64,000 nucleotides of DNA from Eledone cirrhosa (lineage: Eukaryota). The notes under the pieces were generated by a model. That model did no database searches. It had not been told where the DNA came from and was given only the letters and a program-made list of their open reading frames with translations. Location of the stretch: the NCBI GenBank assembly GCA_964016885.1, contig OZ024756.1, positions 12,214,001-12,278,000 on the forward strand, in the 5' to 3' direction. A program made the position numbers and the translations under genes. Below are positions 9,200-64,000 of the stretch, piece by piece; the first letter of the stretch is position 1; the number at the start of each line of letters is the position of its first letter.

Positions 9200-9598
9200 C
9201 GTTTCTGAATTTGTTTAGCAAGATTCTTTATCTGAAATCGTGTGTTGAAACCGATATTGTTATACTTTGGGAGGGTCATGTTGCCAATAAGAAACACACG
9301 CACCAGTTGCTTTCACTTCAATTTAATTTAATATATATTTATAAATTTACAAATAGAAGGATAGAAGAAAGGAAAGGCACAGAAACGAAGAAAGAAATCC
9401 CCAGTCACTGAAGAGGTCACAGAGTGTGTGACGAAAGAACTATGACTATATATATATAAACAACTATCTGGTTGTGGAACCAACCAACCAACCAGAAATT
9501 TATAAATTTGTAAATTTATAAATATATATTAAATTAAATTGAAGTGAAAGCAACTGGTGCGTGTGTTTCTTATTGGCAACATGACCCTCCCAAAGTAT

Positions 9599-50644: not shown

Positions 50645-53600
50645 TAAAACTTCAGAGTTGGTACCATAAATGTAGGCACCCTAAAGGGTCGCGCTAACGA
50701 GGTTGTAGAAATGCTTGAACGTAAGGAGGTCGATGTTTGTTGTATTCAAGAGACCAGGTGGAGGGGTGGGTCTGCTAGATTCATTGAGGGTAAAAAACGA
50801 TGTTATAAGCTTTTCTGGGTGGGAAACGACGATGGGCTGGGTGGAGTAGGAATCATGGTAGCAGAAAAGTTGGCAGATAAGATAATAGACGTAAATAGAG
50901 TGAACGACAGAATAATTAAAATAAGACTTGTCCTCAATAGAACTACGGTGACAGTAATATCTGCGTACGCACCCCAATCCGGACTGCCCGGCACTATAAA
51001 CACTATGAGACACTGTTGCTAACTACCTCCCAAATATCTGACAGTGACTATATAATTATTGCAGGCGACCTAAATGGTCACATTGGACAACATTGTGACG
51101 GATACGACGAAATCCATGGAGGCTATGGGTTTGGTACTAGAAATGAGGAAGGCTCCAGAATCCTGGAATTCTGTGATGCAAATAACCTAACTATCTGTAA
51201 CACTAACTTCAAAAAACGTGACAATCACCTGATCACCTATAGATCCGGGGAACACACAAGCCAGGTAGATTATATCCTTACCAGAAGACGTGACAGAGTG
51301 TCTGTTGTAAACACTAAATCCCTCCCCCATGAAGAATGCACCTCCCAACATAGACTGATAATTAGCGACCTCATAGTCAGGACGAGACGTACTCGACAGC
51401 AGAAGAGGACTATCCTCAGGAGGAAAATATGGAAACTAAAGGACCCCACAGCCAGAAATAAATTTCAAAGCATATTACTTGATGCTTTCGACAGTAAGGA
51501 AGAGCATCTAGAATCGGACAATATAGAGGGACAGTGGGAATTTCTGAAAGCAAACCTGCTGTTGGCGACAGACGAAGTCTGTGGCTGGAGCAGGCCTGTA
51601 GGCAGGAGGAGAGTAACATGGTGGTGGAACAGTAGGGTGGAGGGGTCAATTAAGGCCAAAAAGCAGGCCTGGAAAGTATGGCGGGATGGGGGAAGTAGAG
51701 TAGACTATCAAGTGGCCAGGAGGGAAGCTAGGAGAGAAGTGTACTTAGCAAGAAGGGAAGCTGAGGAAAGAAAGTTCAAGCATGTTCTACAACGCGATGA
51801 CCAAAAACGTGAGGTGTTCAGGATTGCCAGGCAATGCGTCAAGGAAAACCGTGATATTGTCGGGGAGAAGTGTGTACTTAACGATGATGGCATACTTGCC
51901 ATCACCGACACTGATAAGAGGGTAGCTTGGAAGTGTCACTATGAAAGGCTACTAAATGAGGAGAATAAATGGGAGAAAGACAGTCTCCCCCATATCGACC
52001 CGATAGAGGGACCAGCAGTGTTAGTCGAGGGGAGTATAATAAGTAAGGCAATCAAGGATATGAAGACGGGTAAGGCGGCTGGGCCTTCGGAAATAGTTGC
52101 TGAGATGCTGAAGGCATCTGGCACGGTGGGACACACCATGGTCACCCGCATAGTTAACCAAGTCGTACAGAATGGGGTTGTTCCGAAGGACTGGCATAGC
52201 AGCATCATCGTTAACTGTTATAAGGGTAAAGGAGACGCCCTAGATAGGAGTAACTATAGAGGCATTAAATTAATTGACCAGGTCATGAAGGTCACGGAAA
52301 AAGTAATAGCGCAACTAATCAGAGAGAGAATTGACCTAGATGAAATGCAGTTCGGGTTTGTGTCAGGCAAAAGCACCACAGACGCTCTTTTCATAGTACG
52401 ACAACTACAGGAGAAGTACCTAGCTAAAGGTAAACCCCTCTACTTAGCTTTTGTCGACCTGGAGAAAGCCTTCGACAGAGTCCCCCGCTCCATTATCTGG
52501 TGGGCTCTTAGAAAACTAGGCGTTGACGAATGGCTTGTGAGGGCTATACAAGCCATGTATAAAGAAACAGTCAGCAAGGTTAGAATTAACAACGAATATA
52601 GTGAAGAGTTTAGCGTAAAAGTTGGCGTCCATCAGGGCTCTGTTCTCAGCCCCCTACTATTTATTATTGCCCTTCAGGCTATAACAGAGGAGTTCAAGAC
52701 AGGCTGCCCATGGGAACTCCTATACGCAGACGACCTGACACTCATAGCGGAATCAATGGCCGAGCTAGAGAAGAAATTCCAAACATGGAAGCACGGCCTA
52801 GAGTCAAAAGGACTTAAAATTAACCTGGCTAAGACCAAAGTTCTAGTTTGTAGGAAAGAAAACAAGGCGGCGGTCCCTTCTGGGAAATGGTCGTGCTCGG
52901 TGTGTAGGAAAGGCGTAGGTAGAAACTCCATTTTATGTCCTAAATGCAAAGTATGGGTGCATAAAAGATGTAGTGGGATCACAGGTAAGCTAACTAAGAA
53001 CATAGATTTTACATGTGGCCGGTGTTCTGGTGCAATAAGTAGCAGCAAGTGCCCACAAAATACTAGCTCTTTCAACTGCGCAGAGGGTTCTATAGAAATA
53101 GTGGACAGCTTCCGTTACCTGGGCGATAAAATCAGCAGTGGGGAGGGTGCTCTGAAAGTACTGTAGCTAGAGTCAGAACTGGTTGGAAAAAGTTCAGAGA
53201 GCTTATACCACTATTAGCTGCTAAAGGGTTCTCCCTAAAAATGAAAGGCAGGTTGTACGATGCCTGCATACGAACAGCAATGTTGCATGGTAGTGAGACC
53301 TGGGCATTGTGTGCAGAGGATATACGCAGACTAGAGAGGAACGAAGCTTGCATGCTCCGCTGGATGTGTAACAGTAATATACGTGAACGGCAAAGCATAA
53401 ACGAACTAAGGAAAAAATTAGAGATAAGAGGGATCAGATGTTGTTTACTCGAGAGAAGGCTGCGTTGGTATGGACACGTGATGCGCATGAAAGTCGATAG
53501 CTGTATAACAAAGTGCAGGGCAATAAAGATAGACGGTAGCCACGGAATAGGCAGACCTAGAAAAACATGGGATGAGCTGATAAACTCCGACCTCACACAC

Positions 53601-54953: not shown

Positions 54954-57900
54954 GCCCCATCTCCCTCACCCCTCCCCGCCCTTCCCACCCACCAAACACA
55001 AACCAAAACTTCAGAGTTGGTACCATGAATGTAGGCACCTTAAAAGGTCGCTCTAACTAGGTTGTAGAGATGCTTGAATGTAAGGAGGTTGGTGTTTGCT
55101 GTATCCAAGAGACCAGGTGGAGGGGTGGGTCTGCTAGATTCATTGTGAGTAAAAAACGATGCTATAAGCTTTTCTGGGTGGGAAACAACAATGGGCTGGG
55201 TGGAGTAGGAATCATGTTAGCAGAAAAATGGGTAGATAAGATAATAGACGTAAATAGAGTGAACGACAGAATAATTAAAATAAGACTTGTCCTCAATAGA
55301 ACTACTGTGACAATAATATCTGCGTATGCACCCCAATCTGGACTGCCTGGCGTTATAAAAGACAGATTCTATGAGTCGTTAATGCTCATTACCTCCCAAA
55401 TAACTGACTGACTATATAATTATTCCTGGCGACCTAAATGGTCACGTTGGACAACACTGACGGCTATGACGGAATCCATGGAGGCTATGGGTTTGGTACT
55501 AGAAATGAGGAAGGCTTCAGAATCCTGGAATTCTGTGACGTAAATAATCTAACTCTCTGTAACACAAACTTCAAAAAACGAGACAATCACCTATAGATCA
55601 GGGGAACACACCAGTCAGATAGATTATATCCTTACCAGAAGACGAGACAGAGTGTCTGTTGTAAGCACTAAATCCCTCCCCCGTGAAGAATGCACCTCCC
55701 AACATAGCCTCATAGTCAGGACGAGACGTACTCGACAACAGAGGAGACCTATCCTTAGGAGAAAAATATGGAAGTTAAAGGACCCCACAGCCAGTAATAA
55801 ATTTAAAAGCATATTACTTGATGCTTTTGACAGTAAGGAAGAGCAATTAGAGTCGTACAATATAGAGGAACAGTGGGAATTCCTGAAAGCTAACCTGCTG
55901 AAGGCGACAGATGAAATCTGTGGCTGGAGCAGACCTATAGGCAAAAGGAGAGTAACTTGGTGGAGGAGTCGATCAAGGCCAAAAAGCAGGCTTGCAAAGT
56001 ATGGCGGTATGGGGGAAGTAGAGAAGACTATCAAGTGGCCAGGAGGGAAGCTAGGAGACAAGGGTACTTCGCAAGAAGGGAAGCAGAGGAAAGAAAGTTC
56101 AAGCATGTTCTACAACGCGAGGACCAAAACCATGAGGTGTTCAGGATTGCTAGACAATGTGTCAAGGAAAACCGTGATATTGTCGGGGAGAAGTGTGTCC
56201 TTAATGATGATGGTGTACTTGCCATCACTGACGCTGATAAGAAGGTAGCTTGGAAGTGTCACTACAAAAGGCTACTAAATGAGGAGAATAAATGGGAGAA
56301 AGACAGTCTCCCCCACATCGATCCAATAGAGGGACCAGCAGTGCAAGTTGAAGGTAGTATAATAAGTAAGGCAATCAAAGATATGAAGGCGGCTGGGCCT
56401 TCGGAAATAGTTGCTGAAATGCTGAAAGCATCTGGAATGGTGGGACACACTATTGTAAACCAAGTTATACAGAATGGGGTTGTACCAAAGGACTGGCATA
56501 GCAGCATCATCATTAACTGCTACAAGGGTAAAGGAGATGCCCTAGATAGGGGAAACTATAGAGGCATTAAATTAATTGACCAGGTCATGAAGGTCACAGA
56601 AAAAGTAATAGCGCAACTAATTAGAGAGCGAATTGATCTAGATGAAATGCAGTTTGGGTTTGTGTCAGGTAAAAGTACCACAGACGCTCTTTTCATTGTA
56701 CGACAACTACAGGAGAAGTACCTAGCTAAAAGTAAACCCCTCTACTTAGCTTTTGTAGACCTGGAGAAAGCCTTTGACAGAGTCCCCCGCACCGTCATCT
56801 GGTGGGCTCGTAGATGAATGGCTTGTGAGAGCTATATAAGCCATGTATAAAGAAACAGTCAGCAAGGTTAGAATTAACAACGAATATAGTGAAGAGTTTA
56901 GCGGAGGAGTTCAAGACCAGCTGCCCATGGGAACTTCTATACGCAGATGATATAACGCTCATAGCCGAATCAATGGCTGAACTAGAGAAGAAATTCCAAA
57001 CATGGAAGCATGGCCTAGAATCAAAAGGCCTTAAAGTTAACTTGTCTAAGACTAAAGTTCTAATATGTAGGAAGGAGATTAGGGCACTGGTCCCATCTGG
57101 GAAATGGCCATGCTCAGTGTGTAGGAAAGGAGTAGGCAGAAACTTCATTTTATGTCCTAAATGCAAAGTATGGGTTCATAAAAGATGTAGTGGGATCACA
57201 GGTAAGCTAACTAAGAATATAGATTTTATATGTGGCCGGTGCTCTGGTGCAATAAGTAGCAGCAAGTGCCCACAGAATACTAGCTCATTCCATTGCCCAC
57301 TATAGAAATAGTGGACACCTTCCGTTACCTGGGTGACAAAATCAGCAGTGGTGGAGGGTGCTCCGAAAGTACAGTAGCCAGAGTTAGAACGGGATGGAAA
57401 AAGTTCAGAGAGCTTGTACCACTATTGGCCGCTAAAGGGTTCTCTCTAAAAATAAAAGGCAGGCTGTATGATGCCTGCATACGTACAGCGATGTTACATG
57501 GCAGTGAGACATGGGCCTTGTGTGCAGAGGATCTACTCAGACTGGAGAGGAACGAAGCTTGCATGCTCCGTTGGATGTGTAATAGTAATATACGCAAACG
57601 GCAAAGCATAAATGAACTAAGTGAGAAATTAGGAATAAGAGGGATCAGATGTTGTTTACTCGAGAGAAGACTACGTTGGTATGTTCACGTGATGCGCATG
57701 AAAGACGACAGTTGTATAAAAAAATTCAGGGCGATCAAAATAGACGGTAGCTACGGAGTAGGCAGACCCAGAAAAACCTGGGACGACTTGATAAAATCCG
57801 ACCTCACACCCTTACACCTCTCCAAGACAATGTCACTGGACCGAGATCTTTGGCGCTACGTAGTAATACAGAAGACCCGCTTTGCCTAAGTACAAAGCGA

Positions 57901-58267
57901 AACCTACAGTCAGTAGGCACCTCTTAACCAAAATACACCCCCGTCCCACTACCCCTACCCCCACCTACATCACCCCTTTCGATGTAAAGCTATGTTGGTA
58001 CCACAACATCCAGTCCTAAATAAATGATGTCGTGTAGGTGTCACGAGAAAAAACACACAGTCCACGCTGTAATGTGGCCGTGTAGGTAACAGTAAAAACC
58101 TCCCAGTCCACACTATAAACGTGGTTGGTGTTAGGAAGGGCATCCAGCCGTAGAAAACCCACCAGACAGTCCTATACGAGCAGGACAACCAATCTTGCCT
58201 CAAGTGGGACAATTCCCGTCCGAACCCATGCTAGCTTGGAAGATGGACGTTAAACGATGATGATGAT
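54953..58267 (+). mobile_element. Second near-full-length RTE LINE, more degraded, in tandem orientation
   Basis: Collinear with 50645-54043; multiple stops, deletions and frameshifts; (GAT)n tail. Confidence 0.95.
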
Positions 58268-58438
58268 AATATACATATATATATATACACATATACATAT
58301 ATATATATACATATACATATATATATATATACACATATACATATATACACATATACATATATATATATACATATACATATATATATATATACATATATAT
58401 ATATACATATATATATACACATATTCATATATATACAC

Positions 58439-58470
<32 letters not shown>

Positions 58471-59174
58471 ACATATACATATATATATATACATATATAT
58501 ACACGTATATATATATATGTATATGTGTATATATATATATATGTATATATATATACACATATATATATACACATATATATATACACATATACATATATAT
58601 ATATACACATATACATATATATATATACACATATACATATATATGTATACACATATATAGATATACATATATATATACACATATACATATATATATATAT
58701 ACACATATACATATATACACATATACATATATATATACATATATATATACATATTTATATATATATACATATATATATATATACACATATATATATATAC
58801 ATATATATACATATATATACATATACATATATATATATATACATATATATATATACACATATATATATATGTATATATATATATGTATATGTGTATATAT
58901 ATATATATATGTATATGTGTATATATATATATATGTGTGTATATATATATACACATATATATATATATATACACATATATATATACACATATACATATAT
59001 ATATATACACACATATATATATATGCACATATACATATATATATATACACATATACATATATACACATATACTTTTTTTTATACACATATACATATATAC
59101 ACATATACATATATATATACACATATATATATACACATATATATATATACATATATATATATACATATATATAT
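58268..59174. repeat. (TA/CATA)n microsatellite
   Basis: Direct reading. Confidence 0.95.
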
Positions 59175-59249
59175 ATACATTATGAAGAGAGAAGAAACAT
59201 TTAGATATAATTAGTAATAAAATGTATCATACCTAAACTGCTCCTAAAT

Positions 59250-59339
59250 TCCTCGACTACGTAGTTTCGTGGCATAAACAAAAACAATACATCATAAAGA
59301 TATAGAGTCCTTGCGAGGTCTGCCGACTTATCAAGAGGA
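59250..59339 (-). ncRNA. Type I hammerhead, U3-A8 core variant
   Basis: Reverse complement of the 60201-60290 motif. Confidence 0.75.
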
Positions 59340-60200
59340 TACCTCATTTTACTAGTCTCAAGAACACGTCTACACGACGTGAGAAAGAATCCCAAAAGGT
59401 GGAGGGGGAGATAGTCACGCGATATAACGGTCGAGAAACAGAGCTGAGCGTCTTATAACCCCCGAAGAAAATACCACGGAGGCGGAGGGGGTATTTATAT
59501 CGAAGCCGTAGAAGAGGTGGTGAAGGAGACGAGAAGTATGAGTAATGGAAGCTTTCCAGCAGTCCCCACACCTCAAAGATTGCTCGACCAGAGGGAGTTA
59601 TTAACAATATATTTAGAAACACACAGATACATGCGGACACACACATATACATGAATGCATCCGCACCCAACCGTGAGTTAAGGGTGCCAACTTCACCGAT
59701 GTTGCTCAATGAATGACTGGGACAGACCAATCCGGTTGAACCAGACTGAACCAGTATCAGAGTTAAAAATACATTATGAAGAGAGAAGAAACATTTAGAT
59801 ATAATTAGTAATAAAATGTATCATACCTAAATTGGTCTGTCCCAGTCATTCATTGAGCAACATCGGTGGAGTTGGCACCCTTAACTCACGATTGGGTGCG
59901 GATGCATTCATGTATATGTGTGTTTCTAAATATATTGTTAATAACTCCCTCTGGTCGAGCAATCTTTGAAGTCTGGGGACAGCTGGAAAGCTTCCATTAC
60001 TCATACTTCTCGTCTCCTTCACCACCTCTTCTACGGCTTCGATATAAATACCCCCTCCGCCTCCGTGGTATTTTCTTCGGGTTATAAGAGGCTTAGCTCT
60101 GTTTCTCGACCGTTATATCGCGTGACTATCTCCCCCTCCACCTTTTGGGATTCTTTCTCACGTCGTGTAGACGTGTTCTTGAGACTAGTAAAATGAGGTA

Positions 60201-60290
60201 TCCTCTTGATAAGTCGGCAGACCACGCAAGGACTCTATATCTTTATGATATATTGTTTTTGTTTATGCCACGAAACTACGTAGTCGAGGA
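60201..60290 (+). ncRNA. Type I hammerhead, U3-A8 core variant, GUC site
   Basis: TCCTC-TTGATAA-GTcGGCA[loop]TGCCAC-GAAA-CTACGTAG-TC/GAGGA. Confidence 0.75.
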
Positions 60291-60527
60291 ATTTAGGAGC
60301 AGTTTAGGTATGATACATTTTATTACTAATTATATCTAAATGTTTCTTCTCTCTTCATAATGTATTTTTAACTCTGATACTGGTTCAGTCTGGTTCAACC
60401 GGATTGGTCTGTCCCAGTCATTCATTGAGCAACATCGGTGAAGTTGGCACCCTTAACTCACGGTTGGGTGCGGATGCATTCATGTATATGTGTGTGTCCG
60501 CATGTATCTGTGTGTTTCTAAATATAT

Positions 60528-61256
<729 letters not shown>

Positions 61257-61358
61257 AGTAATAATAATAAAATTGAAGACTAAAATCCAGAGAGGGCTCG
61301 ATAAGGAAAATATATATCAAATATATAAGAACCGAAGAGCAAATATTTATTAAAATAA

Positions 61359-61432
61359 CAGATTAAAGTTTAAGCAAAGAATTGCTGCTTTCACCCTTAA
61401 CGGGATCTTCTGAAACTAACAAAGTCAATCTG
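61359..61432 (-). ncRNA. Hammerhead-like motif, CAGAAGA core variant
   Basis: Reverse complement: AGTTT-CAGAAGA-TCCC GTTAA GGGT-GAAA-GCAgcaattcttTGC-TT/AAACT. Confidence 0.5.
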
Positions 61433-62078
61433 TAAACGCAGAACTGGATATTTCAAAAAACGTTGCAACCGGAGGAAGACAGGAAGACGATACTTTGGTT
61501 CATGGTGACGTTCGCTGGCAAAGAACGGGAAAAAACGAATAATACGTCATTAATAGGAGCTGTGAAAAACAATTACGTGCAAGGACAGAACCACGTTTAT
61601 GGTATAAAAGAGGTCGTAGACTAATGTTCTCTAAGTGGTGCATAGAGACGTTCTCTGGCAATGAACGACAAAAACGAAGATAATAAGTCATATGTGGAGC
61701 GTGGAGAACAATAGCGTGCAAAGACAAAACCACGTAAATGGTATAGCAGAAGTCGTAGACTAAAAATCTAACTATTAAATGGTTTTGTCTTTGCACGCTA
61801 TTGTTCTCCACGCTCCACATATGACTTATTATCTTCGTTTTTTCGTTCATTACCAGAGAACGTCTCTATGCACCACTTAGAGAACATTAGTCTACGACCT
61901 CTTTTATACCATAAATGTGGTTCTGTCCTTGCACGTAATTGTTTTTCACCGCTCCTATTAATGACGTATTATTCGTTTTTTCCCGTTCTTTGCCAGCGAA
62001 CGTCACTATGAACCAAAGTATCGTCTTCCTGTCTTCCTCCGGTTGCAACGTTTTTTGAAATATCCAGTTCTGCGTTTA

Positions 62079-62151
62079 CAGATTGACTTTGTTAGTTTCA
62101 GAAGATCCATTAAGGGTGAAAGCAGCGATTCTTTGCTTAAACTTTAATCTG
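62079..62151 (+). ncRNA. Hammerhead-like motif, CAGAAGA core variant
   Basis: CAGATTGA..AGTTT-CAGAAGA-TCC ATTAA GGGT-GAAA-GCAgcgattcttTGC-TT/AAACT-TTAATCTG, then AATAAA. Confidence 0.5.
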
Positions 62152-62166
62152 TTATTTAATAAATAT

Positions 62167-64000
<1,834 letters not shown>

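Follow-up and report, generated by a model that had tools for sequence, protein, structure and literature searches.

A hammerhead-bearing retrozyme-type family in Eledone cirrhosa whose inverted insertions nearly always combine two fixed 3′ ends, one per arm

The window copy is an inverted insertion of a high-copy repeat

We analyzed a stretch of 64,000 nucleotides from Eledone cirrhosa (GCA_964016885.1, contig OZ024756.1, positions 12,214,001 to 12,278,000 of the forward strand; here called the window). Near its right end lies a noncoding repeat unit carrying a hammerhead ribozyme motif, which a first-pass annotation had described as partial tandems in both orientations. We found that this copy is a single insertion of a high-copy repeat of ~591 to 594 nt, sitting in (TA)n, in an assembly of 3.0 Gb. 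Unit positions are numbered q1 to q594, corresponding to window positions 59177 to 59770; the hammerhead (sense) strand is the reverse complement and reads from high q to low q. The insertion and its surroundings comprise the following features.

58231..59176, no strand: left target flank, a (TA)n-rich microsatellite (sequence)
59175..59181, minus: site A, a fixed 3′ end with 3 to 4 nt of TA-like microhomology to the flank (end mapping)
59177..59831, hammerhead strand minus: arm A, 1.10 units (q1-594 plus q1-61), 3′ end at site A (self-comparison and end mapping)
59250..59339, minus: type I hammerhead of arm A (U3-A8 core, long helix II, palindromic helix III), predicted cut 59255/59254 (structural scan)
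59831, no strand: head-to-head (5′-to-5′) junction, 1-nt overlap, phases q61 and q555 (self-comparison)
59831..60528, plus: arm B, ~1.2 units (q555-1 with a 20-nt deletion, then q594-430), 3′ end at site B (self-comparison and end mapping)
60201..60290, plus: type I hammerhead of arm B, with stem I at 60201-60205/60286-60290, core at 60206-60212, GAAA at 60272-60275 and GUC at 60283-60285 (structural scan)
60364..60528, plus: tail of ~164 nt leading from site A to site B and ending at B in a short TATAT run (end mapping)
60529..61256, no strand: right target flank, a (TA)n-rich microsatellite (sequence)

Comparing the window with itself recovered a direct repeat of 63 nt (59175-59237 = 59769-59831, 100% identity) and two inverted matches. 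The first pairs 59175-59731 with 60365-59831 over 557 columns, with 9 substitutions and 22 gap positions (2 + 20 nt), and the second covers 226 nt at 100%. The right arm (59831-60528), taken as its reverse complement, runs from q555 to q1 and then from q594 to q430. The annotation had described a full 594-bp unit plus 63 bp of the next, a flip followed by ~1.2 units on the opposite strand through the unit junction, and arms differing by a few substitutions and a ~20-bp deletion; our mapping agrees with each of these, the second unit of the left part extending for ~61 to 63 nt. Within the tail, the segment q441-480 is kept in sister subfamilies.

An exact 24-nt hammerhead motif matched 7,157 times genome-wide and its sister version 410 times, while reversed controls gave 0 matches. 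A 70-nt AT-rich query returned no candidates, a result that is uninformative. We examined 114 insertions, comprising 64 from three similarity searches, 49 from contig C1 and 1 re-fetched locus. From the similarity-search set, 26 of 93 loci were dropped as overlapping, incomplete, spurious short matches or three of four duplicated copies. The C1 sample consists of the first 100 motif matches on that contig and is positional, biased just toward an intact motif. At least two older subfamilies (~80 to 88% and 74 to 78% identity; L141-L170 and L247-L269) have the unit length, core and end sites of the main family. The window copy belongs to a real, young and very abundant family of the retrozyme type.

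Four loci on contig C5 between 12.4 and 13.0 Mb (L010, L011, L012 and L087) carry an identical insertion and junction, probably through segmental duplication, and smaller local repeats occur at L237 and L208/L209. Among the youngest copies, columns q71/73, 351-355, 384/385, 396 and 566 vary in many combinations, which suggests recurrent change or template mixing.

Each unit carries one conserved hammerhead motif

The hammerhead consists of stem I (UCCUC/GAGGA), the core UUGAUAA (60206-60212 on the plus strand and 59328-59334 on the minus strand), a bulged helix II with a structured loop of ~50 nt, GAAA, a helix III closed by an 8-nt palindrome, and the cleavage triplet GUC. It came from a structural scan; an Rfam scan of the window at the gathering threshold gave no match, Hammerhead_1 (RF00163) falling below it. 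The core is a U3-A8 variant in which the 3-8 pair, GAAA, NUH and helices I to III are all present. Self-cleavage is predicted after GUC 60285 (q79/78), the position at which the annotation had placed the cut.

In an alignment of 20 copies, 17 of them from the ~80% sister family, helices I, II and III are paired at 95.0, 95.8 and 100%. The core is kept in 19 of the 20 rows, sister copies included, and one pair has a two-sided change, in 3 rows. Core columns q152-158, which lie outside the search motif, are unchanged in 201 to 203 of the 203 to 205 passes per column. Against eight sister copies, q141-160 (the 5′ core, outside the search motifs) is 0.94 conserved, among the best bins, versus 0.59 for q161-200. 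The helix III palindrome is invariant in the alignment but lies largely inside the search motif; its duplex is predicted at −14.3 kcal/mol, which would permit a dimeric fold. When one natural unit is folded as a circle, the predicted energy is −174.6 kcal/mol, compared with −143.0 ± 7.4 kcal/mol for 30 shuffles.

Inverted insertions nearly always combine one A end with one B end

Sense 3′ ends fall at two fixed sites, A (q1-5) and B (q423-431). In sense order, the predicted cut lies 78 nt upstream of A, and B lies 164 nt downstream of A. Sixty of the 64 inverted insertions pair an A end with a B end, none is A+A or B+B, and the remaining four have an internal fragment as the second arm. The arms were head-to-head in every inverted insertion checked (n = 38). 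Single arms (n = 50) end at A in 28 cases, at B in 21 and internally in 1. The same rule held for 24 of the 26 inverted copies of the C1 sample and, judged by eye over 34 loci, for the older subfamilies of 74 to 88% identity (23 of 26 inverted copies, the exceptions being L165, L167 and L142). These counts agree with the twin priming proposed in the first-pass annotation. Because 64 inverted insertions, each with its own junction, obey one rule, we consider an assembly fold-back very unlikely as the source of the window arrangement, as the annotation had also argued; chance is excluded.

The 3′ ends lie in short TA-like runs of the unit, and the flank is TA rich at 171 of 178 of them. Exact A-to-TA junctions number 2,674 genome-wide; among the first 100 of these, inspected by eye, no opposed A-TA pairs lay within 10 kb. 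A pattern for site B gave 3,434 matches, which is not an end count because about half of the first 100 rows were main-subfamily read-through.

The 5′ ends occupy all twelve 50-nt phase bins (8 to 21 per bin), and q70-85, around the predicted cut, holds only 3 of 178. At the head-to-head junction the arms overlap by 1 to 12 nt in 39 of the 60 A+B copies, and 1 of the 50 single arms bears a short cap. The expectation that copies start at variable phases therefore holds for 5′ ends and fails for 3′ ends, and the permuted look of the copies follows from two internal start sites and 5′ truncation.

The arms of an insertion largely share a haplotype

Copies longer than one unit that read through the unit junction, also predicted by the annotation, are common. 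Arms exceed one unit in 89 of 178 cases and two units in 17, and the longest measures 2,921 nt (4.9 units). Divergence, with indel-prone columns masked, is 0.44% (143/32,233; 63 arms) among passes within an arm and 0.47% (158/33,470; 48 insertions) between the arms of one insertion. The median between insertions is 2.5%, or 2.2% in the C1 sample. Twenty-four private variants, in 18 insertions, are present on every covering pass, and L230 carries one haplotype across ~8 passes in both arms. A variant present on all units calls for a monomer stage, either a circle or a jump within one molecule, unless later conversion spread it. The window arms have five minority alleles in common and are identical over q430-594 and q1-113.

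In-register divergence between arms was 0.60% before the cut and 0.68% after it (58 insertions), with backgrounds of 2.0 and 2.7%. The cut site is therefore no switch point, since divergence is not raised beyond it; together with the scarcity of 5′ ends at q70-85, this speaks against the template switching that the annotation had invoked, as tested at the ribozyme cut. A circular template, which it had also proposed, is probable: the uniform multimers and private variants favor it, as do the retrozymes of other animals, but the mosaic arms described below do not.

The unit is noncoding and likely a Penelope-mobilized retrozyme

The unit has no protein-coding capacity. A 158-amino-acid stop-to-stop frame had no Pfam match, tblastx against 49 loci, most of them with Penelope-like genes, gave low-complexity matches only, and the longest frame beginning with methionine spans 102 amino acids in a window arm and 75 in another copy. 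These checks and the structural scan agree with the annotation's statement of one hammerhead and no open reading frame (ORF) per unit. As in retrozymes, the unit is short and tandem with one type I hammerhead motif each, and in the C1 sample 2 to 5 whole hammerheads occur in 24 of 75 arms. The insertions are dispersed over thousands of sites on many chromosomes and lack long terminal repeats (LTRs), as seen in the 114 inspected. As in elements mobilized by Penelope, they are 5′-truncated partial tandems with head-to-head inversion and a tail at one end. The retrozyme or Penelope-type origin suggested by the annotation is supported.

None of the insertions examined had the structure of an autonomous Penelope-like element (PLE), in which an ORF for reverse transcriptase (RT) and GIY-YIG endonuclease lies between its terminal repeats (pLTRs), and none of the 114 was linked to a coding Penelope ORF. 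We rejected a DNA transposon or miniature inverted-repeat transposable element, the alternative that the annotation had named as refuting its reading: 5′ ends spread over the whole unit and 50 of 114 copies are single arms, so there are no fixed ends of the terminal-inverted-repeat type. A TATA-like octamer (59492-59499, minus strand) was dropped as a promoter candidate, being exact in just 6 of 11 copies.

A coding Penelope-like family with paired ends lies next door

Beyond the right flank lies part of a second element.

61257..62167, no strand: inverted, 5′-truncated 3′ end of a protein-coding Penelope-like family (similarity search)

This family is abundant (2,608 candidates) and has two 3′ ends, 86 nt apart. 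By eye, 21 of 24 of its inverted pairs use one of each, the exceptions being L048, L207 and L281. We detected no sequence likeness between the neighbor family and the unit, and a hammerhead scan of its 3′ region found none. The one-of-each rule is thereby shown to belong to Penelope-type integration, which does not make the neighbor family the partner. The copy at 61257-62167 also holds an internal repeat of ~130 nt at 79% identity.

The search for a partner covered 30 of 10,595 GIY-YIG candidates and the neighbor family, and turned up no sequence in common with the unit. A helix-II variant motif pursued as a lead had 46 matches; 30 loci were examined, and all belong to the unit family as mutated, truncated or older copies. 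A second lead, 18 Rfam hammerhead loci (L271-L288), proved to be a different family with no common sequence; its members carry the Hammerhead_1 motif in its canonical Rfam form and often lie in short inverted arrangements.

A model with two priming sites on one RNA, and its alternatives

The pattern of ends and arms very probably reflects double priming of the Penelope type. Our fuller interpretation, which we think likely although less securely so, is that the unit is a non-LTR retrozyme whose RNA, probably circular, serves in trans as the template for a Penelope-like RT-endonuclease priming on both target strands, one per site. Transcription of a copy longer than one unit would yield RNA with two tandem hammerheads, predicted to pair by way of their palindromic helix III and to cut after GUC. 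The monomer would then be ligated into a circle, as the uniform multimers and the retrozymes of other animals suggest. The enzyme would nick both strands of (TA)n and extend cDNA from A on one and from B, 164 nt downstream, on the other; here the end pattern is observed and the chemistry of target-primed reverse transcription is what we infer. Each cDNA would run a random distance past the ribozyme site, for up to ~5 rounds, before the 5′ ends are joined by microhomology, a step whose pattern is likewise observed. Were one priming to fail, a single arm ending at A or B would remain. As a tentative extension, a Penelope RT-endonuclease dimer might act on one circular RNA with two programmed starts, one subunit per strand, and copy it by rolling circle in both directions. 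The inverted pLTR and one-sided tail of PLEs at large would then result from double priming that is obligate and asymmetric, and the 590-nt circle would be its minimal cis substrate.

Several observations weigh against the circular retrozyme interpretation. Covariation in the hammerhead alignment (0.092) is not above that in shuffles (0.086), and the monomer folds no better than shuffles (z of −0.85 and −0.35). Nearest-neighbor insertions differ by a median of 0.58%, near the within-insertion value, so identity alone is no proof of one molecule. Beside the private variants on all passes, 109 occur on a single pass and 5 on some passes. In 8 of 58 inverted copies, the window's included, the arms differ at two or more shared alleles; such mosaic arms did not come from one circle and imply two related templates or a mixed multimer in some insertions. 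In the window copy, it is the second pass of arm B that differs. The sister copy L165 looks A+A, with one end against non-TA sequence, and the neighbor-family pairs L048 and L207 use the outer end twice. No autonomous element sharing unit sequence was found among ~50 Penelope-like loci by profile search and tblastx. In the lizard system, moreover, cleavage is unnecessary for insertion and priming proceeds without homology (PMC11167929).

The same two-site twin priming could act on an uncut multimeric transcript from tandem copies, leaving the hammerhead as a passenger. Uncut RNA was the main substrate of the lizard element in vitro (PMC11167929), Penelope hammerheads of such architecture cleave poorly (PMC4209133), few 5′ ends lie at the cut, and heterogeneous source arrays would suit the mosaic copies. 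A linear template can only shorten copies, however, yet arms reach 4.9 units with uniform private haplotypes (L230, L236 and L209); the private variants on all passes and the conservation of the catalytic core across subfamilies also count against an uncut RNA, and we think it unlikely. A monomer cut by the ribozyme but left linear, with the RT, on reaching its 5′ end, jumping to the 3′ end of that molecule or of a different one, strikes us as less likely again. Jumps to the same molecule would explain uniform multimers, mosaic arms do exist, and all 4 inferred switch intervals contain the cut site, but those intervals span 429 to 585 of the 594 nt and are uninformative. Nor is there a pile-up of 5′ ends at the cut or a rise in divergence beyond it, and the two columns at the cut site have no indel among 228 passes.

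We give very little weight to an inversion produced when nascent cDNA or antisense RNA folds back or primes itself, to recombination at a later stage, or to an assembly artifact. For head-to-head Penelope copies, self-priming on an antisense template has been put forward (PMC3846280), and the listed joints of contigs from sequencing run X1 do not include the window junction (59831). Yet the 5′ ends of the two arms come within 20 nt in phase in just 7 of 60 A+B copies, each arm is too short to have served as template for the other in 27 of 60, and fold-back does not predict one A end with one B end. Least credible of all is the idea that the unit is merely the pLTR of a coding Penelope element seen in truncated copies. 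Retrozymes are related to pLTRs in Xenopus (10.64898/2026.07.22.740005), and the ends of the unit behave exactly as those of the coding neighbor. The arms, however, wrap into the next unit and not into an ORF, 0 of 49 loci in the positional sample continue into Penelope coding sequence, and the 5′ flanks of the 50 single arms have just simple or other repeats in common, although a rare coding master may exist among ~7,000 motif copies.

Relation to known elements

Animal non-LTR retrozymes, their circles and their proposed mobilization by Penelope elements are known (PMC7229834; 10.64898/2026.07.22.740005; PMC8969392), and mobilization via circles is put forward as a proposal in the Discussion of PMC7229834. 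The present unit resembles the retrozymes of Cervera and de la Peña 2020 (PMC7229834) and Li et al. 2026: it is a noncoding tandem unit with one type I hammerhead each, its 594 nt fall within the reported range of 51 to 972 bp, copies range from monomers to multimers, and Penelope-like elements occur in the same genome. Tandem cDNA templated by a circle is the route proposed for them. Unlike them, the unit has a hammerhead of Penelope type (U3-A8, bulged long helix II), and its copies are dispersed, 5′-truncated, placed in (TA)n and about half inverted, with two fixed 3′ ends. The main text of PMC7229834 does not mention "inverted," "target site," "octopus" or "cephalopod," and the consulted part of Li et al. 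2026 (10.64898/2026.07.22.740005) does not describe insertion ends.

A U3-A8 variant with a palindromic helix III that needs tandem dimers, and cleaves weakly, has been described for Penelope-element hammerheads (PMC4209133). Inverted pLTRs with an optional one-sided tail are likewise known in PLEs (Arkhipova 2013, PMC3846280; Craig 2021, PMC8557442), whose insertions, like those of the unit, include partial tandems, a 5′-truncated inverted head-to-head copy and a tail at one end. (TA)n targeting is common to the unit and the Naiad and Hydra clades (PMC8557442; PMC3846280). The unit differs in having no ORF and a tail of 164 nt versus 30 to 40 nt; the tail, optional in the PLEs described, occurs on one arm and not the other in 60 of the 64 inverted copies. 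How the tandem and inverted insertions and one-sided tail of PLEs originate was described as still undefined (PMC8557442). The lizard element PAc Poseidon (Frangieh 2024, PMC11167929) has, in vitro, two internal RT start sites that delimit a tail, and both strands are cut and extended. Like the unit, it has a hammerhead shortly upstream of the two start sites with the tail between them, an AT-rich target and a predicted dimer. In vitro it showed no start-site difference between strands and no target homology, whereas the unit has different sites per strand, in TA-like runs.

Among the open-access main texts consulted, we found no strict count of one site per strand, no common-template evidence and no such features in a retrozyme. 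Elements of this kind are known, and this family has a hammerhead of Penelope type, a long tail, and ends that obey an unusually strict rule open to counting. Twin priming in LINE-1, a long interspersed nuclear element (LINE), also produces inverted arms that meet head-to-head with microhomology, their 3′ ends facing the flanks, but there the second site is chosen opportunistically and the arms have little overlap. The type of inversion is alike in the unit, whose two sites are fixed and whose arms can overlap over several units.

The young, short copies of the family number in the thousands and allow the priming rule to be counted; the coding family next door follows the same rule. An RNA of 590 nt with two mapped start sites is a ready in vitro substrate for double priming and rolling-circle reverse transcription. 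The genome thus holds many long, near-perfect inverted repeats within TA tracts.

Other elements and other sequencing runs

Sequencing runs with 16 other organism labels contain 9 to 37% of the words searched, and three of them (X5, X6 and X8) were examined. In X5 and X8 the contigs were few, or just one, with a depth of 6 to 11 and variants also present in X1; X6 gave more varied pieces with TA flanks at a depth of 30 to 330. The unit in these three runs may represent relatives in other species or carry-over, and we claim no horizontal transfer. One X5 contig is a self-closing unit of 589 nt at depth 8, although contigs cannot demonstrate a circle. A pattern scan of metagenomes gave 0 matches.

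Elsewhere in the window are two LINE-type remnants, one at 50941-53166 (plus strand) with an endonuclease, RT and PHD finger and the other at 55915-57889 (plus strand) with an RT fragment. A compact hammerhead-like motif with a C3-G8 core, from another family, lies at 9402-9457 (plus strand) and again near position 1035 of L060, a GIY-YIG locus. In the flanks of L032 and L046 there is a further hammerhead family, whose helix II is long and whose helix III is a palindrome of 6 nt.
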